A stretch of 64,000 nucleotides of DNA from Clostridia bacterium (GTDB taxonomy: Bacteria > Bacillota > Clostridia > Oscillospirales > CAG-272), in the NCBI GenBank assembly GCA_017505745.1, contig JAFVOP010000031.1:50712-114711 (forward strand). The letters are read 5' to 3'. The first letter of the stretch is position 1. Each line of letters begins with the position of its first letter. The translations under genes and the position numbers were made by a program. This document shows positions 9,284 to 64,000 of the stretch, in pieces. The notes beneath the pieces are model-generated. The model did not search any database, was not told where the DNA came from, and saw only the letters and a list, made by a program, of their open reading frames with translations.

Positions 9284-9717
9284 GCGAATCGATTGAAGAG
9301 GTATTGGCGCGGGACGGATATTATGTGCGCACCACCGTTGGGGTGAGCATGCGCCCCATGCTGCGCAACCGCCGCGACCGCGTGATCATTCGCCCCGTGG
9401 GCGAGGAACGCCTCAAGCGCTGGGATCTGCCGCTCTACCGCCGTCCCGACGGGAAATGCGTGCTGCATCGGATCATTGACGTAAAAGACGGCTATTACGT
9501 CATCCGAGGCGACAATACTTATGCCAAGGAACGCGTTCCCGACGAATGGGTGATCGGCGTGATGAGCGAATTTTATCGCGGCAAGCGCCACGTAACGGCT
9601 ACGCAGAAGAGCTACCGCTTTTACGCGGCGGCGTGGCAGACCCTCTATCCGCTCCGCTATCCGTTCCACCTGTGCCGTGTGCTGGCTGCAAAGGTCAAGC
9701 ACAAGCTTTTTGGATAA
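9280..9717 (+). CDS. S24/S26-family serine peptidase (LexA/signal-peptidase fold), apparently cytoplasmic
   Basis: GVSMRPML nucleophile motif and ...VLHRIIDVKDGYYVIRGDN. ATGA overlap with the PqqD stop indicates translational coupling. No N-terminal TM segment. Confidence 0.75.
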   Translation: MSESIEEVLARDGYYVRTTVGVSMRPMLRNRRDRVIIRPVGEERLKRWDLPLYRRPDGKCVLHRIIDVKDGYYVIRGDNTYAKERVPDEWVIGVMSEFYRGKRHVTATQKSYRFYAAAWQTLYPLRYPFHLCRVLAAKVKHKLFG

Positions 9718-9754
9718 AATATTTAAAAAGCGATTCCGATATTTGTGCATTTTT

Positions 9755-9800
9755 AACAACCCTTTTTCAAGGAAAATGAAAAAAGGGTTGTTATTTTTAT
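9755..9800 (+). terminator. Intrinsic terminator of the three-gene operon
   Basis: AACAACCCTTTT ... AAAAGGGTTGTT stem followed by ATTTTTAT. Confidence 0.75.
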
Positions 9801-9833
9801 AATTTTTATATTTTCTTTTTGAGAAAATGTATT

Positions 9834-9861
9834 TTCAAGACGTCTTGCGGTATGATATAAT
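9834..9861 (+). promoter_or_regulatory. Promoter of the MBL/GLUG gene (extended -10)
   Basis: TTCAAG, a 16-nt spacer, then TGaTATAAT. It leaves a leader of about 110 nt before ATG 9979. Confidence 0.45.
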
Positions 9862-9978
9862 AATCAAACAGGAACGTGTGAGACAGATGGTCGGGTCTGT
9901 CCCTCGAGCTTGTTCGCAGATGCGTTTTCCCCGAAAACAAGCATTTTAATCTGATTCATGGAAAGGAGAAAATGAAAC

Positions 9979-12861
9979 ATGAAAAAACTCGTAAGCCTAT
10001 TACTGGCATTCTGCAGCATCCTCACCCTGCTCGTATTCCCGGTTGGAGCCGAAACGGTGTCCACAACCGCCACGGGAATTATCGCGCCGCCGTCCAAAAC
10101 CGACCTGACGGCATACGTAACGGCCAACGGCACCAAAACCGTAACCGACGTGTACAACAACTGCCTTCTCCTTACGGTGGAAGGTACCACGGGAGGCGAG
10201 TGGAACACCTACCGCAACCTCCTGATCTCCAAGGGATATACCGAGATCGTAGGAAAATCCGAGGTTTCGGGATCCTCCAACAAGTGGGCCCTGTACGCTA
10301 CCGACAGCTACGTGGTCAACTGCTTTTACGATGCGGTCAGCAAGATCTCAAAGATCTCGATCGAGCCCCGCGACATGGATCTGGGCGTGTTTTCCAAGCC
10401 CTCTTCGGTCCAGCACGTTTGTGAGCCGATGCTGATCCAGATGGGTCTGGACGATAACACCTCCACCTCGCAACGGGATACCGAGCGCAGCGGCATGGGA
10501 TACATCCTGCGCCTGGCCGACGGTCGCTTCATTGTGTACGACGGCGGCTTTGAGGGGGTAACGCTCCAGAACGCCGACAAGATCTACAATATCATGAAAT
10601 CCTATGCGCCCACCTCGGGAGCTTATGCCAATCAGGTGGTTATCGCGGCTTGGGTGCTGACGCATCCGCACTCCGACCACATCGGCGCGTTTATGTATTT
10701 CACCAAATACTACATCGGATACACCGGCGCGCCCGCAACGCTTCAGAACGTGATCTGCAATCTGCCCAGCGCCGCGGAGAGCGCCTCGGATACCGATGCC
10801 GTGCTTGCATACGGCGCCGATGTGGACGCCGCTAAGGTGGACCGCTACAACAAAACGCTGCTGGCTCTGCAAGAGCTGGGGGTAAACGTTTACAAGGCGC
10901 ACGTGGGCCAGAAGTATTATTTCAACGAGGCCATGGTGGAGATCCTGTTCACGGCAGAAAACTTCCTGCCCGACCAGATCTCGGCGGCAAACTCGGATGT
11001 GCACGGCACCAACGCCACGTCGATCGTTTCGCGTGTGACCTGGGAGTGCTCCGCGTATACCTACTCCGCGCTCTTTACGGGAGACGCAAACTATTACACG
11101 GTCAAGGCGCTGAACAAGCTGTACGGCGCAAATCTCGCATCCTCCAATTTCGTGCAGCTTCCGCACCACGGATCGGTGAGTGAGTTCTCCGAGGGAGCGC
11201 CGCTCACAGCTCTGACCACCTTTTATAATTACGTAAATGCTTACCGCGCGCTCATGCCGGCGGGGGTTCGCTATGCCTACGTCAACCAGTGTAAGACCAC
11301 CACGGCGATCTACGAGGATGAAGCGCGCCTGATCGGCTATGCACAGAGATCCGGCAACCCAACCCCCAACCTGAGCCGTACGCTGATCGCAGGCTCCAGC
11401 GTAACCGCATGCACCCTTCAGTACAACACCAAAAAGGTGGTGGTGGAGACCTTTGCGGGCGCGGATTTCTATGCAACGGCTCCCACGCTGGCAAGCACAA
11501 CGGTTCCTTATAAGGACGGAAGCGTCTATCTGATCTACAACGAGGTGGGTCTGGCGGACCTGAAGGCCAGCCGCTCGTACCGCATGCTCAAGGATATGAC
11601 GGTAACTGTGATTCCCGGAGAGACCACGTATCCTCTGCTGCGCGACGATTTCTACGGCAACTTTGACGGCAACGGCTATGCGCTTGTGGTAAGAGCGCCG
11701 TCCACGGTCAGCCTGTCGTTTGCATCGGGTAAGACCAAGCGCGGATTGCTCTTCAATACGATCGGAGCCGTGACCACCGATGCAAACGGAGTCATGGCCG
11801 ACGATCAGGGCACGGTCAAGAATCTGGATATTTATGTTCCCTCGATTACGGTAAAGGGCTCGGTTGGCGGACAGTTCGGCGTGATCGCGGGAACCACGGC
11901 GGGATATTCGGTGATCAAAAACGTCAATCTGAACACCGGAAAGATCACAAAAAGCTCCACGGCAAACGCCAACGTGGGTTCGATGATCGGAAAGGTGCTT
12001 CACGGCACGCTGATTCAGAATTCCTCCTTTGTGGGGCGGATCGCCAACGGACTCACCGATACCACGGCTTACACGGCGGGCGGTCTGATCGGCTGTGTGG
12101 AAATGGTGGCGGACGATTCCTCCACCGCTAACGATAACGCGCTCCGGAGAACCGTGGGAATTCAGAATTGCTCGGTCAACGCGGGGTATTCCTCGGGCTA
12201 TATCAAGGCGTATAGCAATGCAGGAGGCCTGATCGGCCTGATCAACAAGAACCCCGTAACCGTTACGGTTTCGGGTACCACAAATACCAACGGACGTGTA
12301 ATCGCAACCACCAACGCGGGCGGCGCGATCGGAGCCATTACCTGCGCGGCCGATGTTTCGCTCAACGGCTTTACGAACAATGCGGCGGTTCCCGCATTCC
12401 ACGCGGGCGGTATTGTGGGGCAGAGCAGCTATGAGGGTGTGACTCTGGATGCTGTAAGCTGTACCAACACGGCAACCATCAAATCCACCGGTGGCGTGGC
12501 CTCCTCCAATACGGGCGGTACGGCGGGCGGCATCCTGGGATATGCAACGCTGGGAATGACGGTAACGGCAAGCAACTTTACCAACAGCGGAACCATTACG
12601 GTAGAGGTAGCGAATACGGCAAGGATCGGATCGCTCTTCGGCCGTCTCGGTACCACCGCAGGAAACGCTCCGGCGGTTACGGTCAACGGAGCCACCAACT
12701 CGGGCACCGTTTCCTCAAACGCGGTATACGAGGGCATTTGGGCAGGTCATATTTCGGGTGCCAGCAAAACGGCTACCTATTTCAACAACTGTGTGAATAC
12801 AAACACGGCCACCGCTGCCTTGAACCCGGTTGGCATCGGAAACGCCACGTCGATCTCCTGA
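9979..12861 (+). CDS. Exported MBL-fold metallo-hydrolase with C-terminal GLUG-like repeat region
   Basis: Signal peptide MKKLVSLLLAFCSILTLLVFPVGAE. MBL motif AAWVLTHPHSDHIGAF and later QLPHHGS. C-terminal half has about 8 repeats of the type AGGLIGCV / AGGLIGLI / AGGAIGAI / AGGIVGQS / AGGILGY. Confidence 0.7.
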   Translation: MKKLVSLLLAFCSILTLLVFPVGAETVSTTATGIIAPPSKTDLTAYVTANGTKTVTDVYNNCLLLTVEGTTGGEWNTYRNLLISKGYTEIVGKSEVSGSSNKWALYATDSYVVNCFYDAVSKISKISIEPRDMDLGVFSKPSSVQHVCEPMLIQMGLDDNTSTSQRDTERSGMGYILRLADGRFIVYDGGFEGVTLQNADKIYNIMKSYAPTSGAYANQVVIAAWVLTHPHSDHIGAFMYFTKYYIGYTGAPATLQNVICNLPSAAESASDTDAVLAYGADVDAAKVDRYNKTLLALQELGVNVYKAHVGQKYYFNEAMVEILFTAENFLPDQISAANSDVHGTNATSIVSRVTWECSAYTYSALFTGDANYYTVKALNKLYGANLASSNFVQLPHHGSVSEFSEGAPLTALTTFYNYVNAYRALMPAGVRYAYVNQCKTTTAIYEDEARLIGYAQRSGNPTPNLSRTLIAGSSVTACTLQYNTKKVVVETFAGADFYATAPTLASTTVPYKDGSVYLIYNEVGLADLKASRSYRMLKDMTVTVIPGETTYPLLRDDFYGNFDGNGYALVVRAPSTVSLSFASGKTKRGLLFNTIGAVTTDANGVMADDQGTVKNLDIYVPSITVKGSVGGQFGVIAGTTAGYSVIKNVNLNTGKITKSSTANANVGSMIGKVLHGTLIQNSSFVGRIANGLTDTTAYTAGGLIGCVEMVADDSSTANDNALRRTVGIQNCSVNAGYSSGYIKAYSNAGGLIGLINKNPVTVTVSGTTNTNGRVIATTNAGGAIGAITCAADVSLNGFTNNAAVPAFHAGGIVGQSSYEGVTLDAVSCTNTATIKSTGGVASSNTGGTAGGILGYATLGMTVTASNFTNSGTITVEVANTARIGSLFGRLGTTAGNAPAVTVNGATNSGTVSSNAVYEGIWAGHISGASKTATYFNNCVNTNTATAALNPVGIGNATSIS

Positions 12862-20453: not shown

Positions 20454-20528
20454 GCTGGTGTGGCTCAATGGCAGAGCAGCTGATTTGTAATCAGCAGGTT
20501 GATGGTTCGACTCCGTTCACCAGCTCCA
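20454..20528 (+). tRNA. tRNA-Thr (anticodon UGU), CCA encoded
   Basis: Manual cloverleaf. Acceptor GCTGGTG/CACCAGC, D arm GCTC-AATGGCA-GAGC, anticodon arm GCTGA-TTTGTAA-TCAGC, T loop TTCGACT, 3' TCCA. Confidence 0.8.
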
Positions 20529-20691: not shown

Positions 20692-20700
20692 CAACGAAAT

Positions 20701-20870
20701 TCGCCTTTGGCGAGTGATATATGGCTTTGCCATGTGAAATAGCTTCGCTGTGAAATATTTGCTACGCAAATGTGATGGGCGAATTTCATTTCACATTGCG
20801 ACGAAGGAGCAATATTTCACAATTTACGAAGTAAATTATTTCACATTCGGCGCCAGCCGAATATTTCACT
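20701..20870. repeat. Dyad-symmetric array: 4x GTGA(A/T)AT on the + strand, then 4x ATTTCAC, interleaved with mini-hairpins
   Basis: Octamers start at 20714, 20734, 20750, 20772. Complements end at 20794, 20820, 20844, 20869. Hairpins include TCGCC-ttt-GGCGA, GGC-ttt-GCC, AGC-ttc-GCT, TGC-tac-GCA, ATTTA-cgaag-TAAAT, TCGG-cgccag-CCGA. Confidence 0.8.
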
Positions 20871-20978
20871 TGAAAAGCTATCTAAAGTATGATATAATAA
20901 TAGTAGAAAGGCGGTGTTACTATAACTGATTCAAAGCCCCGCGACCTATCCACAGACTTTGCGGTTAAAGTTATAAAA

Positions 20979-21845: not shown

Positions 21846-23129
21846 TTAAAGAATATAATCCGAGATGCAATCGTACCAATGCACGTAGGTTTCGCCGTTC
21901 ACGGTCAGTCGCTCGTTGTCGGGGAGCAGCTCGGTCCACGGCTTTCCATAGCGGTGACGCGCCCAATCGTTGTGATTGAATCTGCGCCAAAGCACCGTTC
22001 TGCCGTTTTTGTCGAGATATTGCTCCGAGACTACGCCGTCGTTAAAGCACTGGATGTCCATGACGCAGACCGTGTCATAGACTTTCCCGCCAATGGTGAC
22101 GGTGTAACGCCCCACGATATCCACGGTTTCCTTGCTCGTATGTCCTTGCACCACCGATCCCTCGCGTCGGAGCAAGCCCTTCGGGGAGAGATTTACTTCG
22201 TTTCCGCAGTTGTCCTCTCCAAAGCCCCAGTTTTGAAGAAACTCGTCGCCGTCGAGAAAGGTGTATAGCTTGCGAATGCCGTTCTCTACGTGGCTTTCCG
22301 CAAGATAGCGGCAGTGCGTGTCGGTCAGCTGCGCCACAAAACGGCGTTCCATCCGATCCACCATGCCCGTGCGGTAATAGTCCTCCACTCCGTATTGGAT
22401 TGCTTCGATCTCCACGCCCTCTATGCCGTGGATCTGCGCTTTCCCAACCACCTTCAAATCGGTATACTCCGTGCGCTTTCTGGAGGGCGCTTCATACAGT
22501 CCCCAGCTCAGCCGCTCGCCCAAACGGGGGATCAATAGCCAGCCCTGCAGCTCCTCCCATTTCACGGAGAAGGGCGGGAGCGGGGAAGGCTCGATTTGAT
22601 ATGCGGGTATCTTTTCGGGTAATTTGCTCATTTGGATATCTCCTTTCAATGATGGCGGATACGGATAATGTTGTCTGAATTTTTCTTTTGCATAGTGTAG
22701 GCGGCTTTTCACGGTTCCCAGCGGAAGTGACAGCCGCGTTGCAATCGCTTCTTGCGACAGATTTTTGAAGAAGTATAGGTACAGGATCTGCTTTTCTTTG
22801 TTGCCAAGCAATTCCAAAGTATCGCGTACGACGCTTTGCTCGGAGACACCGAGCCTTCCTGTGCTCAGGGCGGATTCGGAGAGTGCATCCAAGGAAATCT
22901 GCATCCGTTTGGCTTTTTCGCGGAAATAATCGTTGCATTTGTTGCTTGCAATGCGCAGAAGCCACGCCTTAAAGGCGGACGGATTTTGCAGACTCTCAAA
23001 TTTTAATGCCGCCGTCAGACAGACCTCTTGAATGATATCGTCGGCATCGAATTTGTGGGATACTTTATATCGAACAAAGCGTTGCAGGACGGTAAAATGT
23101 TCTTTTAAAAGCTCTTCAAATTCATTCAC
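21846..23129 (-). CDS. ECF-type sigma-70 family factor fused to a ~260-aa C-terminal domain of unknown function
   Basis: Region 2 (DDIIQEVCLTAALKF...FKAWLLRIASNKCNDYFR) and region 4 (LYFFKNLSQEAIATRLSLPLGTVKSRLHYAKEKF) occupy aa 1-165. They are followed by a soluble extension with no TM segment. Confidence 0.75.
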   Translation of the reverse strand: MNEFEELLKEHFTVLQRFVRYKVSHKFDADDIIQEVCLTAALKFESLQNPSAFKAWLLRIASNKCNDYFREKAKRMQISLDALSESALSTGRLGVSEQSVVRDTLELLGNKEKQILYLYFFKNLSQEAIATRLSLPLGTVKSRLHYAKEKFRQHYPYPPSLKGDIQMSKLPEKIPAYQIEPSPLPPFSVKWEELQGWLLIPRLGERLSWGLYEAPSRKRTEYTDLKVVGKAQIHGIEGVEIEAIQYGVEDYYRTGMVDRMERRFVAQLTDTHCRYLAESHVENGIRKLYTFLDGDEFLQNWGFGEDNCGNEVNLSPKGLLRREGSVVQGHTSKETVDIVGRYTVTIGGKVYDTVCVMDIQCFNDGVVSEQYLDKNGRTVLWRRFNHNDWARHRYGKPWTELLPDNERLTVNGETYVHWYDCISDYIL

Positions 23130-56271: not shown

Positions 56272-56324
56272 GAACAAAAATGCGGAAAATCATACGCACA
56301 AGCTGCAAAATCAAGGAGGTTGCC

Positions 56325-58547
56325 ATGCAAAACGTAGGAGTTTGGGCCAAGGAGCTGGACGGACAAATGAACGCGAACGCATTGTTTTTAATGCGTATCG
56401 ATTCCGAAACCGATCGCGCGATATTGGCGCAGATCGCCGCCGTTGACGTGTTTAAGGTGTGGATCAACGGAAACAGTGTGTTTTGGGGTCCCGCGCGTGC
56501 GGCGCACGGTTACGCCACACTTCACCGCTTGCGCTTGCCGCTGAAAAAGGGAGACAACACGCTGGCCATTGTAGTCTCTTCTTATCTTGCGGCAAACTAT
56601 TCGTGCGCCAAGCAGGCTCCGTTTTTCTATTTCCGCGCGCAACAGGGCAATAGAGAGATCACCGCGCGCGATTTCCTCTGTTACCGCTACGTCGAGCGGC
56701 TCCAAAAGGTGCAACGCTATTCCTTCCAGCGCGGATTCTCCGAAAATTACGTCATGGAAACCGATTTTGCGCAGTCATTGGAGAACTATCTGACCGGCGG
56801 TACCCCGCTTTCGGTGGTGGAGAGACCCACGCCAACGCTGCTTGACGAGATCTTTTCGCTCCCGCTGTTGGATCGCGTGTCCTCTGCCGCGCTGCTCTCA
56901 CGCGGAACCTTCGCGTTGGACGAAACGCTGGAGCCGTGGAAGAATCGCTCGATCGATCTGGTAGGCAATTGCTTTGACGGCTATCCGAAGGACGAATTGG
57001 CGGAATGTGTCAGCGATGCGGTCAGCCGGTTCGTCTATCGGGAGATGCCGGGCGCTTCCAACGTCCTGCATGCAGGAGAATATGCCCTGTATCGCTTTGC
57101 GCGCAATCTGTCCGGCCTGCTTCGGCTGCGGGTAACGGTACGGGAGCGCGCGGTGATGTACGCAACCTATGAGGAGATCGCGGCTACAGACCGCCCGGGA
57201 GTGGATCCCTTCCGCATTGGATGCTGCAACGCGGTGAAGTGGGAGCTGGCGCCGGGCAGCTATACGCTCGAAACGATGGAGCCCTATACGGCTCGGCTTG
57301 TACAGCTCTATCTGTGGCAGGGAGAGCTGACGGTGCACTCCGTTGATACGGTGCGGATCGAGAATCCCAACGCCTACAACCTCTCGTTTGTCGCCAAGGA
57401 TGCGGATCTGACGGCAATCGTTGCGGCGGCGCAGCACACGCTGGCGCAAAATTCCTACGACGTTCTGATCGACTGCCCCTCGCGCGAGCGCGCTTGTTGG
57501 ATCAACGATTTTTACTACACGCACCAAAGCGCGGAGCTTTGCTTTGGAAGCACCGACGCCACGCGCGCGTCGCTCCTCCCCACGCTTCTCGGCAAGGGGC
57601 TTTCGCATCTTCCCGAGGGCATGCTTCCCATGGTGTATCCGGGCGATCACCTCGACGGCAACTACATTCCGCTTTGCGCCATGTGGTATCTTTTCACGCT
57701 TTGCAATCTGCTCGACCGCGGACAAATGGCCGAATATCGCGCCCCGGCCAAGGAAAAGGCCTACGGTGTGCTGCGGTGCTTCCGGGCGTATGAGAACGAG
57801 GACGGACTTCTGGAGAATCTGGGCGGTTGGATCTTTGTGGAATGGTCGGCGGCGGGCAGTCGCGCGTTCGTCAGCGGAGTGAACTATCCCTCCAACATGC
57901 TCTATTATAAGACCTTATGCGCCGTGGGAACCACCTTCAAAGATGCGGCACTTCTGGAAAAAGCCGCGCGTGTAAAGGAGGCGATCCTTGCCCAATCCTT
58001 TGACGGTACCTTTTTCCAGGATAACCGCATCCGTGTGGACGGCAAGCTGACGCTGCAGGGGCATATTTCCGAGACCTGCCAGTATTACGCCTATTTCTCG
58101 GGCGTGGCGACCAAGGAGCAGTTCCCGGAGCATTTTCGCTTGCTGATCGAGCGGTTCGGTCCCTTCCGCAACCGCGCGCAGCTGTATCCCGAAATCGATG
58201 CATCGAATATCATCGTGGGGCTTCTCATGCGTCTGGATCTTCTCAACGAGGCGGGCGAATACCGCCGTGTGATCGACGAGACCAAAGCCATTTTCGGTTG
58301 CATGGCAGAGGGCACGCAAACGCTGTGGGAAAACACCACCGCAAAGGCCAGCTGCAATCACGGCATTGCATCCTACGTGATCCGGCCGCTGCTGCGCGCG
58401 ATGATCGGGCTGGACGGCCCCACCTCCGAGGGACTCTCCCTGAGCGATTCCTTTTGTGCCGACGTGGATTGCGAGGTGCGCCTGCCGATCGGTGGCCGCA
58501 GCGTAACGGTTACGGTGGCCAACGGGGTACGTACGGTAAAGGACTGA
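56325..58547 (+). CDS. GH78-like alpha-L-rhamnosidase family protein (six-hairpin glycosidase)
   Basis: ATG 56325 with AAGGAGG SD. The VLIDCPSRERACWINDFYY motif (DCPxRER) is characteristic of GH78 catalytic domains. Confidence 0.6.
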   Translation: MQNVGVWAKELDGQMNANALFLMRIDSETDRAILAQIAAVDVFKVWINGNSVFWGPARAAHGYATLHRLRLPLKKGDNTLAIVVSSYLAANYSCAKQAPFFYFRAQQGNREITARDFLCYRYVERLQKVQRYSFQRGFSENYVMETDFAQSLENYLTGGTPLSVVERPTPTLLDEIFSLPLLDRVSSAALLSRGTFALDETLEPWKNRSIDLVGNCFDGYPKDELAECVSDAVSRFVYREMPGASNVLHAGEYALYRFARNLSGLLRLRVTVRERAVMYATYEEIAATDRPGVDPFRIGCCNAVKWELAPGSYTLETMEPYTARLVQLYLWQGELTVHSVDTVRIENPNAYNLSFVAKDADLTAIVAAAQHTLAQNSYDVLIDCPSRERACWINDFYYTHQSAELCFGSTDATRASLLPTLLGKGLSHLPEGMLPMVYPGDHLDGNYIPLCAMWYLFTLCNLLDRGQMAEYRAPAKEKAYGVLRCFRAYENEDGLLENLGGWIFVEWSAAGSRAFVSGVNYPSNMLYYKTLCAVGTTFKDAALLEKAARVKEAILAQSFDGTFFQDNRIRVDGKLTLQGHISETCQYYAYFSGVATKEQFPEHFRLLIERFGPFRNRAQLYPEIDASNIIVGLLMRLDLLNEAGEYRRVIDETKAIFGCMAEGTQTLWENTTAKASCNHGIASYVIRPLLRAMIGLDGPTSEGLSLSDSFCADVDCEVRLPIGGRSVTVTVANGVRTVKD

Positions 58548-58642: not shown

Positions 58643-58671
58643 TTGACAAATCCTTCCGTTTCTGCTATAAT
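58643..58671 (+). promoter_or_regulatory. Consensus extended -10 promoter of an orphan leader/sRNA module
   Basis: TTGACA, a 17-nt spacer ending in TGc, then TATAAT. Confidence 0.6.
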
Positions 58672-58892: not shown

Positions 58893-58952
58893 ATGACGAA
58901 ACGCTTTTACAAAATTTTGAGCATGGGGTTGGTGTTGATCTTGAGCGTTTAA
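58893..58952 (+). CDS. 19-codon ORF with strong SD (MTKRFYKILSMGLVLILSV*), possibly a vestigial signal-peptide exon or small membrane peptide
   Basis: GAAGGAGGAAAGGGAA precedes the ATG. The hydrophobic, signal-peptide-like sequence stops abruptly. Confidence 0.3.
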   Translation: MTKRFYKILSMGLVLILSV

Positions 58953-59043: not shown

Positions 59044-62000
59044 ATGAAACAGAAATACCGATACATGAAAATGATTGCACTGTTTTTATCTCTGGTTATG
59101 ATCGTATGCTCCACGCCCATGACGATTATTGCAGAGCCGGTGGAGACCGACTCGGCGGAACAGCAAGTCTCCGACGGAATGATCTCGGAGAGCATGGAGA
59201 TTGTGGAGAGTGAGAAGATAGAAGGTATTGCAGAGGTGATATCCTTGCGCGAAGAAAATGCCAAGCATTTCAAGCGCACGGACGGCACCTATGAAATGGT
59301 GGTGTATCCCACGGCGGTGCACCGTAAGGATGAAAACGGAAATTGGCAGGATATTGACAACAATCTGACGTTGCAAACCGTAAAAAACGCTTCGTTTTAT
59401 GCCACCGCCGACGCAAGAACCCGATTTGCAAAGTCGTTTGCGTGGAATCAAGAGCTGTTTGCGCTGAATGAGGACGGATATTCAATTTCCATGACGTTCG
59501 TTTCCAATCAGATCAGCACCGGCACGGTGCAATTTTCGGAAACCCGCGTGGAAAACGCGCCCGCAAGGTCGGATACCAAAGAATTCAGTACGGTAAAAGA
59601 GGCGGCAGAGATCAACAATACAAGCTCGATTTATTATTCGGGTATCAATGCCACCACCGATCTGGAATACGTTTTAAACGGAAATAGCGTAAAGGAAAAC
59701 ATTATTGTAAAGAGCAAGGGCGGGAACTACAAATACACCTTTGATCTTTCGTTGGGCGGCTTGGTTGCGGTGCTGAATGAAAACAACACCGTAAGCCTGA
59801 TCGATCCCAAAACGGCAGAGGTGCAATATCGCATTCCCGTGCCGTATATGTACGATGCCAACGGGGCGCGCTCCTATGACGTGACCTACACGTTGCAAGC
59901 ATTGGAAGCAGGGGAATATCGGCTTGTGATTTCTGCCGATGCCGATTGGATCAACGCCGAGGGAAGAGCCTTTCCCGTGGTGGTTGACCCGGTGATTGAA
60001 GAGGTTGCAGGGCAGGACACCTATATCGATTCCTTGGCTCCCAGCTATAATTTTGGATATAATGACGATATGATCGTGGGCTCCACGCAGATCGCGTTTA
60101 TCCAAGGGGAAATGCCCGAATTGCCCAACGGTGCCGACGTCACACATGCATACCTCACGGTTTCGTATTACTACGATTACGGTGTGGATTCGGGATCAAC
60201 AACGCTGGGGGCGTATCAGGTGTTGCAGCCTTGGGATGAAATGACTTTGAAGTGGAATACCGCAAATGCGTATACCAATCTCGGTATTTCCTCAACGCTG
60301 TTGTATAGCCAAACGCTCTACGGCTCCACGGGTGCTACGAACGATGAACCCGATTGGATCGGATTCGATATCACGGATGCCGTGGCTTCGTGGTATGACG
60401 GAACAGCGTCGAATTACGGCATTGCACTCCGTTATCTCAGCGGAGCAAACGATTCCGTGTATTTGCACACCTACGATGCTTATCCGGAGTATAGTGCGTA
60501 TTATACGGTGGTATACAGTTACAACATTCCCGACGGCGTGTATGCCTTGAAGAACGTTGGAAACAGCGGGCTTTGGATGGATACGCAAAACGATTCCAGC
60601 GAGGCAGGCAAGCATATTCAGCAGTATGCATATAGCACCGCTCCCACCGCAAGCTTTTCTAGAGGTGGCTTGTTCAAGATCTCGCGGGTGCCGAATACGG
60701 AGCTATACGTCATTCGGTTAATGACAAACAATCTCCTTACGTTTGGAATCTCGGGCAATGAGATTCTCACCGTGGAAATTCCGGAAGACGATGCCGATGT
60801 GGATGCGGCGAAGCTCTTCCACATTGAGTACCAAGACAACGGATTTGTACTCCGTCCTCACAATTCCACATACGTGATTACGGCAAATCAAACCACGGCG
60901 TCGGGCGCGGCAGGAGCCCCCAATTCCTATCTTACCAAGGTACTGCAAACCAACGCAACCTCCAGCGCAAAATGGACGTTGCATCAGTATACGGGAGTGC
61001 AGAAGAGTGGAGGGACATTGAATTTTCCACTTTCTTGGATTGATGTAGGTATTATTACTCATAATACATATTATGCGGATGCAGTTGTTTATTCGACGGA
61101 AATAAACGCAAATACCCCGTATATTATGATAGATTCAAGTGATGAAGATATCGTGTATTCTATGTGGGATTGGGAAAATAAGGTTTTAACTATAAATGCT
61201 CAAATTCCGGGAACTATCAAATTGAATTTGAGGGTCAACTCTCCGGATTACTCTGTTATTGAGCAAGTTGGTCAATACAATTTCAATATTCTTCCCGAAG
61301 AGGGGGCTTATTACATTAAGAATGCGGGAACAGGAAGATACATTGATGTAGAAGGTCCTTCAGAGTCTTCCGGGGCGGTCATACAAGAGTGGGGCTTTCA
61401 CACAGGCGCTCAAGAAAAATGGATTGTGGAGCATGTTGATAATTGTTATATTCGCTTAAGATCGGCATACAGTGGCTTATATATGGGCGTCGATTCGAGC
61501 AATCCTTCTTTAGTGCGGCAATATAGTGTTGAAAATGATTATACTCTTTGGAAATTTGACGATACTGCTTCCGGTCATGTGAAGCTGATCTGTAAGGCTT
61601 TGGAATCAAGTTCCAATGTTCTTGGTGTTTCTTCTTCAGTTTCTTATAATGGCTTGGATTTAACACAAACAACATATTCGGAAGATGCTACTCTTACTGA
61701 TGAATGGTATTTATACCTTTTTAAGGATGCCTCCTTTGTAGCCATTCCCCTGTCTGATTGGACGGATTCTGGTAATCCTTTTACTGGTCCGATCGAATCC
61801 ATTCAAGGTATTGGGTATAGTGATTGTTATGATAATTATTCAAATATTTCGAACAGTATGATAAAAAAAGAGTTCGTGGAACGTATGCAATTTTCGAGAA
61901 TTACTGTAATACGAACTCACGGGTTGCCTAACCTCATTATGCTGAAAGGAGATATGTTGAATAGAAGCGATCTTTTGGCAATGCCGGCAGATACGCTCCA

Positions 62001-62331
62001 GTGTTCTGAATTGATTGTATATGTGGCATGCGAAACGGCACAGGGTGGGAAATATGCTGAGAATTTGGTTGCGGCCACGATTGATGCAGGTGCCCGGACT
62101 GTAATAGGTTTTGAAAATTCGGTAGCAACAGGTGCAGCAACGCGGTGGATTTCTAAATTTTTTGAATATTATGCTGACTATAGTATGGTTGATAGCAAAA
62201 ACATTGATGATGTTCTTACTGATACGGATGATTATATGCAAGATGATCCGCAATATGAATTTACAGTCAACGGGGAATTGATTACATTACGTACTTTTGT
62301 AATCGCCGGTGAAAGTGAATTCCCTAATTGA
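59044..62331 (+). CDS. Exported 1095-aa multidomain protein: DNRLRE-type domain, two ricin-type (QxW) lectin-like domains, C-terminal ~200-aa domain with His-Gly / Ala-Cys dyads
   Basis: ATG 59044 with GGAAAGGAG SD. Signal peptide MKQKYRYMKMIALFLSLVMIVCSTPMTIIA. DTYIDSLAPSYNFGYNDDMIVG...LQPWDEMTLKWNTA (DNRLRE-like). IQQYAY.../AKWTLHQY and IQEWGF...EKWIVEH...YTLWKF (ricin-like). C-terminal ITVIRTHG...LIVYVACETAQGG. Confidence 0.7.
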   Translation: MKQKYRYMKMIALFLSLVMIVCSTPMTIIAEPVETDSAEQQVSDGMISESMEIVESEKIEGIAEVISLREENAKHFKRTDGTYEMVVYPTAVHRKDENGNWQDIDNNLTLQTVKNASFYATADARTRFAKSFAWNQELFALNEDGYSISMTFVSNQISTGTVQFSETRVENAPARSDTKEFSTVKEAAEINNTSSIYYSGINATTDLEYVLNGNSVKENIIVKSKGGNYKYTFDLSLGGLVAVLNENNTVSLIDPKTAEVQYRIPVPYMYDANGARSYDVTYTLQALEAGEYRLVISADADWINAEGRAFPVVVDPVIEEVAGQDTYIDSLAPSYNFGYNDDMIVGSTQIAFIQGEMPELPNGADVTHAYLTVSYYYDYGVDSGSTTLGAYQVLQPWDEMTLKWNTANAYTNLGISSTLLYSQTLYGSTGATNDEPDWIGFDITDAVASWYDGTASNYGIALRYLSGANDSVYLHTYDAYPEYSAYYTVVYSYNIPDGVYALKNVGNSGLWMDTQNDSSEAGKHIQQYAYSTAPTASFSRGGLFKISRVPNTELYVIRLMTNNLLTFGISGNEILTVEIPEDDADVDAAKLFHIEYQDNGFVLRPHNSTYVITANQTTASGAAGAPNSYLTKVLQTNATSSAKWTLHQYTGVQKSGGTLNFPLSWIDVGIITHNTYYADAVVYSTEINANTPYIMIDSSDEDIVYSMWDWENKVLTINAQIPGTIKLNLRVNSPDYSVIEQVGQYNFNILPEEGAYYIKNAGTGRYIDVEGPSESSGAVIQEWGFHTGAQEKWIVEHVDNCYIRLRSAYSGLYMGVDSSNPSLVRQYSVENDYTLWKFDDTASGHVKLICKALESSSNVLGVSSSVSYNGLDLTQTTYSEDATLTDEWYLYLFKDASFVAIPLSDWTDSGNPFTGPIESIQGIGYSDCYDNYSNISNSMIKKEFVERMQFSRITVIRTHGLPNLIMLKGDMLNRSDLLAMPADTLQCSELIVYVACETAQGGKYAENLVAATIDAGARTVIGFENSVATGAATRWISKFFEYYADYSMVDSKNIDDVLTDTDDYMQDDPQYEFTVNGELITLRTFVIAGESEFPN

Positions 62332-62351
62332 GATGGATGATGGAGGGTAAC

Positions 62352-63386
62352 ATGAAAAAAGTACACGGTTTAGTCCTGTTTTTTTGTTGTGCCATTCTTT
62401 TTGTTTTAGGTGGCTGTCAAACACAAGACTCTCCCACGGATGTATCAAATTCAGAAAGTTCGAACTTTGAGGAGTATATCGATACTCAAAAAAGTTCAGA
62501 ATCCGAGAAATCAACAGCTGACCCAAATGTAAAGTTGAATTTTGAAATGCAGGTAACAACCACTTTTGAGGATCCTTCAATTTTTTTGAATGTGGAGCGC
62601 GTTTCGGCCTTTGACGGTGATGTTTGCACGGATCATGAACCTTTAAAAACACTTCAAATGACAATTTTGGGAGTTCCCTATACTTTGATTTATCAAAGCT
62701 CCGGAATATATGGAAAATCCGGGATTCATTTTCATGAATATCGTTTGGAGGGTACAGAGAAGGGAAAAGTGGCAATTCACGCGGATACGGGTGAAATAAT
62801 CAAATATACCAGAGTTCCATATTTCGCAAATTTGACTACTGAATCAGATTACGTTGATTTCATCAAAAATATTGCCGGAGAAAAATATGAACTGGATTCG
62901 TACGAGTATCGAACTTCTACATGGTATTTTTCAGATACCTATGAGAATGGGGTTCCGTACCATAGAAGCCGGGAAGTGAATGGCTTTTATATTTGCGGAG
63001 AAAATGAGCGTGTAAAGTCACATAGCTTTAATTATATAAAAACGGTAGGGGGCATTGATACGAATGAGTTGATTGAAACAGAGTTTTACGTTGAAGATCA
63101 AGTGCTCTCTCTGGTAATGTTCGATATACACTACGAGGAAAACATATTTTCCAATTTGTTGGAACATTGGGAGAAGTTTGAATTTTCTTTGGATGAGTAT
63201 ATTCACGCTCACTTGCATCCTCGCGTTCTCTCTTTAAACTCAATGAATGCTGGCCACACATTGTTTGTAAAGGGAGACCAACTTTATGTGTTATCGGTGA
63301 TTACTGTTTCGATTGATATGGAAGGTGTGTCTGACTTTTATACCGGTGCATACATAGTTACGCAGGTAATTGAAACTCCTGATTAG
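62352..63386 (+). CDS. Lipoprotein of unknown function (344 aa)
   Basis: MKKVHGLVLFFCCAILFVLGGC lipobox. Low GC. Lies 20 nt after the stop of the large exported protein. Confidence 0.6.
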   Translation: MKKVHGLVLFFCCAILFVLGGCQTQDSPTDVSNSESSNFEEYIDTQKSSESEKSTADPNVKLNFEMQVTTTFEDPSIFLNVERVSAFDGDVCTDHEPLKTLQMTILGVPYTLIYQSSGIYGKSGIHFHEYRLEGTEKGKVAIHADTGEIIKYTRVPYFANLTTESDYVDFIKNIAGEKYELDSYEYRTSTWYFSDTYENGVPYHRSREVNGFYICGENERVKSHSFNYIKTVGGIDTNELIETEFYVEDQVLSLVMFDIHYEENIFSNLLEHWEKFEFSLDEYIHAHLHPRVLSLNSMNAGHTLFVKGDQLYVLSVITVSIDMEGVSDFYTGAYIVTQVIETPD

Positions 63387-63394
63387 AGATAACT

Positions 63395-63424
63395 CCCCGC
63401 CGCCCGCATTGTGGGCGGCGGGGG
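63395..63424 (+). terminator. GC-rich hairpin after the lipoprotein gene (no T-tract)
   Basis: CCCCGCCGCCC-gcattgt-GGGCGGCGGGG. Confidence 0.4.
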
Positions 63425-63508
63425 AACCGGGGAATTTCTATTTGAACCCCACAGATATCAATCATTTGCGCCAAATATACAACTTGCTATACCGGGAGGT
63501 GAACTAAG

Positions 63509-64000
63509 ATGAAAAAATTTTTATGCATTCTACTTTCCATATGGATGGTACTTGCTTTTGCCGGATGTGATCCGAATAACGGAAACGATATCGATACGAG
63601 CTCGGACACCGAATCGGATACGATGAAGGATACCAACACCGAAACGGAGAGTGTAGAAGATACGGAAATTGAATCCGGAATAGGGACAAAGGATCCAACT
63701 CGCCCGGACTATTCCTTGATTACCGTTGATGGCAATCATTATTTGGTGTTTGATAATGTTTTAAATCATACGTATACGTACCCCCCTCAGGAGGCTTGGG
63801 TGATGTTTGATTCTATAACAGAGTGGAAGGATCACGTAACCAAAGGTACTCTGTCGGATTATGCCAAAGCAATCATTGTGGTTGCTTTTGAGAAAAACGA
63901 TATTGGATTTAAAATTTGCAATTTTAACAATCTGTTTGTTCCGGTCTTGCCCGAGGATGTGGTTTCTTCGACGGTTCGTTGGTGGAGCGAATCATACTCG
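63509..64000 (+). CDS. Second lipoprotein of unknown function, 3' end outside window (not in ORF track)
   Basis: GGGAGG SD 9 nt upstream. MKKFLCILLSIWMVLAFAGC lipobox, an acidic Thr/Asp/Glu linker, and an open frame for 164 codons to the window end. Confidence 0.6.
   Translation, partial: MKKFLCILLSIWMVLAFAGCDPNNGNDIDTSSDTESDTMKDTNTETESVEDTEIESGIGTKDPTRPDYSLITVDGNHYLVFDNVLNHTYTYPPQEAWVMFDSITEWKDHVTKGTLSDYAKAIIVVAFEKNDIGFKICNFNNLFVPVLPEDVVSSTVRWWSESYS

Follow-up and report, generated by a model that had tools for sequence, protein, structure and literature searches.

Sec-exported polymorphic toxins with C-terminal 'Tox-Caspase' domains have been catalogued previously (Zhang, Aravind et al. 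2012, PMC3482391). In that catalogue most caspase-like domains of polymorphic toxins are releasing peptidases, the C-terminal-most versions being assigned a toxin function, and a lipoprotein immunity protein was found just once (Imm65). WapA of Streptococcus suis combines a Sec signal, a DNRLRE domain and Rhs repeats (PMC12704120), and lectin-mediated targeting is established for the secreted polymorphic umbrella toxins of Streptomyces (PMC11062931). Here we analysed a gene for an exported protein of 1095 amino acids (aa) in a 64,000-nucleotide (nt) stretch of DNA, hereafter the window, from a Clostridia bacterium (contig JAFVOP010000031.1, positions 50,712 to 114,711). We consider it probable that this protein is a Sec-exported, lectin-guided polymorphic effector of gut Clostridia, paired with a lipoprotein that serves as its inhibitor or immunity protein; its toxicity and its target are what we infer. 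The locus and its relatives differ from the known systems in that a single-chain lectin trunk replaces the RHS or ALF repeats, the tails identified are all extracellular-type hydrolases and the partners are almost always lipoproteins. No paper describing such a single-chain lectin-trunk architecture was found in a literature search, itself incomplete.

The open reading frame (ORF) starts at ATG 59044, preceded by aggaaaggag, and ends with a stop codon at 62331 without interruption. Its features and those of the two following genes are given below in window coordinates.

59044..62331, + strand: whole gene, exported multidomain protein of 1095 aa, uninterrupted ORF
59044..59136, + strand: Sec-type signal peptide read from the sequence, MKQKYRYMKMIALFLSLVMIVCSTPMTIIA, presumably cleaved before EP
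59221..60021, + strand: conserved all-beta N-domain, aa 60-326 (AlphaFold2 (AF2) model, pLDDT 89; 43 invariant columns in 18 sequences)
60013..60468, + strand: DNRLRE/CBM96 domain, aa 324-475 (NCBIfam NF033679, 79 bits for a cut-off of 34)
60481..61008, + strand: predicted ricin-type beta-trefoil lectin 1, within aa 480-655, ending AKWTLHQY (PF14200, 33.2 bits for a cut-off of 25.6)
60982..61030, + strand: compositional breakpoint, GC content at third codon positions (GC3) falling from 0.60 to 0.32 (best codon 654, support interval codons 646-662)
61009..61275, + strand: spacer, presumably immunoglobulin (Ig)-like, aa 656-744 (in homologues, Big_2 precedes the last ricin domain)
61276..61713, + strand: predicted ricin-type beta-trefoil lectin 2, aa 745-890 (PF14200, 73.3 bits; ThreeFoil 3pg0, E = 5e-7)
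61714..62328, + strand: predicted CHAT/caspase-like (clan CD) cysteine-peptidase domain, aa 891-1095, 205 aa (AF2, Foldseek, alignment and profiles)
61918-61920, + strand: His959
62029-62031, + strand: Cys996
62352..63386, + strand: partner gene for a 344-aa lipoprotein of no known family (lipobox LGG/C), with homologues directly 3′ of CHAT-type tails only
63509..64000, + strand: second lipoprotein gene, of no known family (lipobox FAG/C), running past the window end

The last 205 residues are predicted to adopt a clan-CD (CHAT/caspase-like) fold with a putative His959/Cys996 dyad in the canonical positions, an assignment supported by alignment, modelling and profile comparison. In 27 homologous tails, 13-50% identical to the query, five positions are invariant, His959, Gly960, Cys996, Thr998 and Gly1022. 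The motif RITVIRTHG holds H959-G960 and ELIVYVACETAQGG holds C996. In the AF2 model computed from this alignment (pLDDT 93.9, pTM 0.92), strand 61-67 leads directly into His-Gly and strand 100-104 directly into Ala-Cys, in a tail numbering where the invariant residues are H69, G70 and C106. When compared to the PDB by Foldseek, the model gave 70 matches at E <= 1e-3, and the 50 listed are almost all clan-CD peptidases; a probability of 1.0 was reached with Csx29/TPR-CHAT, SAVED-CHAT, caspases 3, 4, 7 and 11, separase and gingipain RgpB (TM-score 0.66-0.68). The tail profile also matched SAVED-CHAT 8tl0 (E = 4e-4), and this match aligns the HG and aC.T motifs. At the level of Pfam, the CHAT family PF12770 is reached by P0049, P0050, P0067, P0095 and P0096 (precomputed) and by P0128 (27.5 bits), all members of the present family. 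A first-pass annotation, made from the letters alone, had read a clan-CD arrangement from the His-Gly and Ala-Cys motifs, and the predicted fold of the last ~200 aa agrees with it.

Tails of this type are widespread. An exhaustive profile search of public protein sets from metagenomes and genomes, clustered at 50% identity, matched 5,495 clusters at E <= 1e-3; when word-indexed searches were made with the tail profile or the partner, almost only self-matches came back. The tail was the domain nearest the C-terminus in all 150 best matches, and a ricin lectin stood just before it in each of ten sampled proteins.

The trunk that precedes the tail is composed of carbohydrate-binding modules joined to an N-domain that is better conserved than any other part of the family. 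For this N-domain, no fold in the PDB matched significantly, the best ones (YidC periplasmic domain, PL33 lyase chains) having E >= 6e-3 and TM <= 0.38. The DNRLRE/CBM96 call is supported by PF24517 matches precomputed for many homologues, and the predicted lectins by a whole-protein PF14200 score of 76.8 bits, above the gathering threshold. Lectin 2 ends in the junction motif DEWYL (nt 61699-61713), in which W888 is invariant among the 35 sequences of the junction alignment. The signal peptide, DNRLRE domain and first ricin-like domain of the front, as well as the second lectin domain of the back, had all been proposed by the first-pass annotation, and each was recovered. The Ig-like stretch that it named (aa 651-750) is a partial case: no Pfam match was obtained in this ~90-aa spacer of the window protein, but homologues carry Big_2 ahead of their last ricin domain.

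To describe the family we used the 120 best relatives, which are mostly ~1100-aa proteins from metagenome-assembled genomes (MAGs) of gut and rumen Clostridia; in a scan of 185,579 species genomes, 349 gene stretches encode a trunk relative. In about 50 of the 120 homologues, similarity to the trunk stops at query aa 888-902. The trunk ends ...DEW-x-[LIMF] (aa 886-890) and the sequences are unrelated from the very next residue. Beyond this junction, at least 10 unrelated tail clusters were counted among 84 proteins, and 22 among 71 complete genes from species-representative genomes. Pfam matches identify CHAT-like, reprolysin-like metallopeptidase, C70, C39-like papain-fold, LCAT/PGAP1-type lipase, M10/astacin and DUF3289 tails; three other sampled clusters gave no convincing Pfam match. 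Closely related trunks may carry different tails, as shown by P0001 and P0002, which are the closest to the query (74% identical over aa 1-330) and end in a C39-like and a reprolysin-like cluster tail, respectively. Conversely, the closest tail, that of P0006 (50%), is joined to a trunk that reaches only 25% identity in the aa 655-890 segment. These alignments indicate that C-termini are swapped at a fixed junction, at aa 890 and not at 655. The polymorphic-effector logic proposed by the first-pass annotation is supported, in that related trunks carry unrelated C-terminal domains and the partner gene changes with the tail. A fixed swap junction, which it suggested looking for near aa 655, does exist, but at aa 888-902, right after the invariant DEW-x-[LIMF] at the end of ricin 2.

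The partner gene starts 20 nt past the stop codon of the effector gene. We surveyed this position in 79 genomic loci. The next gene encodes an exported protein in 48 of the 52 ricin-trunk loci (41 lipoproteins and 7 other exported proteins), generally with a gap of <40 nt. Three CHAT-tailed homologues in context have a homologous lipoprotein gene directly 3′ (E = 8e-38, 2e-24 and 1e-6), and unrelated exported proteins occupy the partner position of one reprolysin-tailed and one C70-tailed homologue. Partner identity co-varies with tail type: similar partner pairs were found 22 times within tail types and 0 times in 1388 pairs across them (nominal Fisher p = 2e-23, the pairs not being phylogenetically independent). 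Consistently, strong matches of the CHAT-partner profile adjoin CHAT tails only. Weak matches of the same profile (15-30 bits) to many lipoproteins, including lipoprotein 2, were discarded as they probably reflect signal peptide and linker only, and apart from signal-peptide matches the profile finds no relatives in Pfam or the PDB. For the second lipoprotein, no relatives were found beyond its copy in L001 and a weak match (E = 3e-4) to an L045 partner that belongs to a different tail type; this gene might encode a second immunity protein or be an orphan immunity gene. The partner genes had been called small in the first-pass annotation, which does not hold for partners of about 300-350 aa.

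In another locus (L034 5297-6875), two tandem lipoprotein paralogues are identical in their last 31 residues, DGEDTIASRLLNSETAAAALEELYSTAEGEE, an indication that partner genes have undergone recent recombination or gene conversion.

Base composition changes abruptly inside the effector gene. Over segments of 300 nt, GC content ranges between 0.46 and 0.54 at 59.0-61.0 kb and between 0.35 and 0.43 in everything past 61.05 kb, most of the remaining window being at 0.55-0.61. The step occurs at synonymous sites (GC3 0.60 before codon 654 and 0.32 after), with a log-likelihood gain of 42.2 nats, whereas 500 codon shuffles never exceeded 9.0 nats and ten further long ORFs in the window gave 1.3-12.5. 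In this genome, the compositional breakpoint is codon 654, distinct from the swap junction at aa 890. It lies within the conserved trunk at the boundary between ricin 1 and the Ig-like spacer, immediately behind AKWTLHQY, the final W-containing motif of lectin 1. No second break was found by GC3 changepoint analysis within the 3′ part, up to the stop codon. The two lipoprotein genes have a GC3 of 0.36 and 0.45, respectively, and the two upstream genes of 0.72, so that the 5′ part of the effector gene (0.60) is somewhat atypical too. The first-pass annotation had described a mosaic within one ORF with a break near aa 655, and a low GC content lasting through the next two genes to the window end, as observed here. 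Its drop at about 61.0 kb is also found, but the 'about 35%' given for the back is the minimum (mean about 0.39-0.40), and the front that it called GC-typical is richer in GC than the back but poorer than the upstream genes.

In many relatives from higher-GC genomes, GC3 likewise falls from 5′ to 3′. The changepoint is near the aa-890 junction in L003, L009, L013 and L050, and inside the trunk in L028, L064, L035, L024, L025 and L038. Where both flanks are visible (L028, L013, L035 and L050), host-level GC resumes on either side, after the partner gene, which argues against chimeric assembly and for repeated import of 3′ cassettes out of a lower-GC gene pool.

An orphan cassette was found in L034. 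It is N-terminally truncated (L034 7755-9305), lacks a signal peptide and matches the query over aa 628-1045, and is followed by a CHAT-type partner (9332-10249). Upstream in the same array are a full-length gene whose tail is reprolysin-like, the lipoprotein that goes with it, a recombinant paralogue of this lipoprotein and a third lipoprotein. The orphan begins close to the trunk position of the composition break in the window gene, and the GC3 step at codon 654 is consistent with a recombination event involving an orphan cassette.

A second candidate (P0157/L086), starting near trunk aa 600, was rejected as an orphan cassette since it is a short-form gene with two in-frame stops. This member (L086 485-2572) has a signal peptide, ricin, Ig, ricin and a CHAT-like tail, the TGA and TAA stops being 12 nt apart; either it is a pseudogene or it contains a sequencing error. 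Other variants of ~810-870 aa are without query ~aa 530 to 750, roughly ricin 1 and the Ig-like spacer (P0021, P0024, P0054, P0059, P0076 and others; L025, L027, L043 and L057). In some genomes, two family members lie in tandem within 6 kb.

The first part of the trunk is shared with a different group of proteins. About fifteen relatives of 2000-2350 aa have only aa 1-465 (signal peptide, N-domain and DNRLRE/CBM96) in common with the query. In those scanned, RHS repeats follow, and L054 also carries PT-HINT and an LHH nuclease. No RHS_repeat or PT-HINT match at E <= 0.1 was obtained in the window protein, nor any LysM, and there was no LXG/WXG Pfam match, the N-terminus being a Sec signal peptide. 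The statement in the first-pass annotation that no known toxin-family marker is visible is thus correct for the protein itself (no RHS, PT-HINT or LXG), but its first 465 aa are common to RHS-repeat proteins, including the one with PT-HINT and nuclease. Eight of the 13 genes downstream of these RHS relatives encode products without export signals (p = 9e-5 compared to the ricin-trunk group), as expected for toxins acting in the cytoplasm. The contrast between both groups suggests that the location of the partner follows the expected site of action of the tail.

Taken together, these observations lead us to propose the following mechanism. The constant trunk, composed of signal peptide, all-beta N-domain, DNRLRE/CBM96, ricin lectin 1, Ig-like spacer and ricin lectin 2, would bind surface glycans and place the protein on its target. 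Directly after ...DEW-x-L comes an interchangeable 'warhead', here a predicted minimal CHAT/caspase-like cysteine peptidase with the putative dyad His959/Cys996, which would cut proteins at the surface or elsewhere outside the cytoplasm. As an immunity protein or inhibitor, the lipoprotein would be anchored outside, on the producer membrane, and most likely bind and block its cognate peptidase. The family would diversify by replacement of the 3′ end together with the partner gene. In the present case, a unit composed of Ig-like spacer, ricin 2, peptidase and lipoprotein(s) was probably imported from a donor of lower GC, recombination having taken place where ricin 1 meets the Ig-like spacer, at codon 654. 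As targets we favour competing bacteria over host or dietary glycoproteins.

Several observations weigh against this proposal. No donor of the low-GC part was found at the DNA level among 85 loci, and the closest tail and the closest aa 655-890 segment are only 50% and 52% identical, respectively. The isolated tail scores 23.2 bits and the full protein 19.4 with PF12770, missing the gathering threshold of 24. Partners of one tail type are often too divergent for a mutual match, which is absent from 130 of 152 such pairs. Clear orphan cassettes are rare, with one (L034) in 79 loci and none in the other 78, and none lies in the 1.7 kb visible 3′ of the window gene, the window stopping at 64000. 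The rarity of orphans and the remaining points also support a different function, a degradative exoenzyme. Here a secreted protease targeted by its lectins and carbohydrate-binding modules would serve nutrition by trimming mucins of the host, or glycoproteins of dietary or microbial origin; the lipoprotein would guard the producer surface, either as a dedicated inhibitor or as a maturation chaperone, and the variety of tails would reflect substrate range rather than an arms race. Indeed, the Pfam-matched tails are all extracellular-type hydrolases, peptidases and lipases, of kinds also known from degradative exoenzymes, CBM96 and ricin domains are common carbohydrate-binding modules (PMC9971899), and glycoside-hydrolase genes are found nearby (rhamnosidase-like upstream here, GH95 in L003 and GH38 in L006). 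No secretion-system or lysis genes were found near the effector gene. On the other hand, strict co-variation of tail and partner combined with a foreign 3′ composition is unexpected for housekeeping exoenzymes, and nutritional enzymes rarely need a cognate inhibitor gene by gene. In addition, the same N-terminal 465 aa head RHS-repeat proteins, one with PT-HINT and LHH nuclease, and a tail-plus-partner cassette exists as an orphan. We therefore judge the nutritional function unlikely, though far from negligible, and retain the polymorphic effector as our preferred explanation.

The peptidase could instead be self-processing, as the releasing peptidases of many polymorphic and MARTX-type toxins, and cut the trunk for release or activation, with the effector function residing in the trunk. 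Most caspase-like domains of polymorphic toxins are of this releasing kind (PMC3482391), but the same source gives the C-terminal-most versions a toxin function, and here the domain is C-terminal-most with nothing downstream to release. Furthermore, relatives hold metallopeptidases, papain-like peptidases or lipases in the same slot, and the peptidase has its own co-varying partner, which makes this role improbable. We have also considered that the metagenomic contig fused gene copies of two organisms inside the conserved trunk. The related sequences all come from MAGs or metagenome contigs, and the window stops before host-like GC could resume. Moreover, an exact look-up of the whole window protein in public assemblies gave no match, and its only part on public record, a 3′ fragment (P0121) on the sole independent identical contig (L001, 100% identical over nt 61329-63795), begins at nt 61329 and does not span the junction. 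However, reading frame and domain order are intact over the junction, and the homologues are too divergent to share long exact words (<=61% amino-acid identity overall, extended DNA matches only about 65-70% identical). The 5′-high/3′-low step is moreover seen in many independent assemblies, with host GC on both sides in the four loci cited above, so that an assembly artefact appears very unlikely. Finally, local amino-acid or codon-usage constraints of C-terminal domains might produce a step without any transfer, and GC1 and GC2 do dip slightly in parts of the 3′ region. Yet the change is mainly at third positions, abrupt (a support interval of 17 codons) and extends into separate downstream genes, and the two ricin domains belong to the same Pfam family in spite of a high GC3 for the first and a low GC3 for the second. 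This last explanation is hardly credible.

If the effector reading is correct, the family would join glycan recognition, extracellular proteolysis and lipoprotein-based self-protection in one polypeptide, and would offer minimal caspase-like proteases paired with specific inhibitors, open to testing. A clear example of 3′-cassette replacement would be visible in the base composition of one gene, and the polymorphic-toxin concept would extend to effectors that require no dedicated secretion machine and possibly act at surfaces. More tentatively, and as a possibility rather than an expectation, these proteins may represent a distinct and widespread class of contact-independent, Sec-exported, single-chain antibacterial exoproteins of Gram-positive bacteria, with built-in lectins reading competitor glycans, swappable hydrolase tails acting from outside and cognate lipoproteins. 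Such tails would kill by cutting envelope proteins or lipids. In gut and rumen Clostridia, which are hard to culture and about whose ways of competing little is known, the class would be the functional analogue of umbrella toxins, fused in cis, and proteases with matching inhibitors could be drawn from it as a natural source.

The surroundings of the gene include three further features.

58643..58671, + strand: promoter-like site, TTGACA, 17-nt spacer and TATAAT with an extended TG, 12/12 consensus matches (pattern match only)
58893..58952, + strand: upstream ORF of 19 codons, MTKRFYKILSMGLVLILSV followed by a stop codon, with a gaaggagg ribosome-binding site, within the leader
63395..63423, no strand assigned: GC-rich hairpin with 14-bp arms, 3′ of the partner gene (terminator/repeat scans)

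The promoter-like site lies ~370 nt 5′ of the gene and would give a leader of roughly that length. The 19-codon ORF resembles the start of a signal peptide and may be a leader peptide or the relic of a displaced signal-peptide 5′ end. Repeat, Rfam and promoter/terminator scans of 58.4-64.0 kb revealed no mobile-element ends, integrase or RNA element at the junction. Type VII secretion system genes were found neither among the window ORFs scanned nor in six homologue contexts.

Upstream of the effector gene is a rhamnosidase-like gene (56280-58547). Glycoside-hydrolase genes thus adjoin family members in three unrelated genomes, the two others being GH95 (L003 4370-7468) and GH38 (L006 2349-4688); this adjacency may simply mirror the GH-rich genomes of gut Clostridia. 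Further upstream, positions 29400-51600 form a 22-kb block of low GC (0.38-0.41 compared to about 0.57), a single co-directional operon for the synthesis of a surface polysaccharide or teichoic acid-like polymer. Its genes encode a DegT aminotransferase, two UDP-glucose/GDP-mannose dehydrogenases and GT4 glycosyltransferases, together with a Polysacc_synt_3 flippase, a glycerophosphotransferase, a cytidylyltransferase and a galactokinase-like kinase. It may or may not be by chance that a lectin-bearing effector lies 8 kb from a variable glycan locus. Two convergent Gut-1 RNA motifs, at 20692-20761 (+) and 20783-20871 (-), follow a tRNA (20454-20525) and sit within a local GC dip, and a sigma-70/ECF-like gene is located at 21846-23129 (-).

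As in Tox-Caspase polymorphic toxins (PMC3482391), the window family combines a signal peptide and a constant N-terminal and central region with variable C-terminal domains, a C-terminal-most caspase-like domain with His and Cys, a directly downstream partner gene and probable 3′ cassette replacement. In contrast, the trunk is made of CBM96 and ricin lectins and not of RHS, filamentous or ALF repeats, the identified alternative tails are all extracellular-type hydrolases, and the partner is a ~330-aa lipoprotein with no relation to Imm36 or Imm57. With WapA-type RHS toxins (PMC12704120) it shares the N-terminal Sec signal and DNRLRE domain, and relatives with the same first 465 aa carry RHS; unlike them, the window protein has no RHS repeats, PT-HINT or LysM, and its partner is exported, whereas those of the nuclease-tailed RHS relatives mostly lack signal peptides. 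The umbrella particles of Streptomyces (PMC11062931, PMC13274773) resemble the proposed effector by the use of a general export pathway, by a polymorphic C-terminal toxin and by lectins that select targets via surface glycopolymers. These particles are multi-protein assemblies, in which UmbC carries ALF repeats and the lectins act in trans (UmbA, UmbB), while in the window protein the lectins are fused in cis. Phylum, toxins and immunity proteins also differ.

The predicted tail has the fold of the CHAT proteases (PF12770; Csx29/TPR-CHAT, SAVED-CHAT), caspases, separase and gingipain R, with the His-Gly...Ala/Gly-Cys dyad after adjacent strands, and gingipain is in addition a secreted clan-CD peptidase joined to adhesin domains. 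Compared to CHAT proteases, the window tail is minimal (about 190 aa for 289 Pfam profile positions). The CHAT proteases matched in the PDB are intracellular and CRISPR- or SAVED-associated, whereas the window tail is predicted to be extracellular. Its regulation, if any, would be ensured by the lipoprotein instead of the nucleotides or RNA-guided complexes of CHAT systems.

The neutralisation of an envelope hydrolase outside the cytoplasm has a precedent in type VI secretion system effectors that act in the periplasm and are paired with lipoprotein immunity (Tae/Tai, Tle/Tli), and in TelC-TipC. The window protein follows another secretion route and has no sequence relation to these effectors, and it would act from outside on Gram-positive envelopes.

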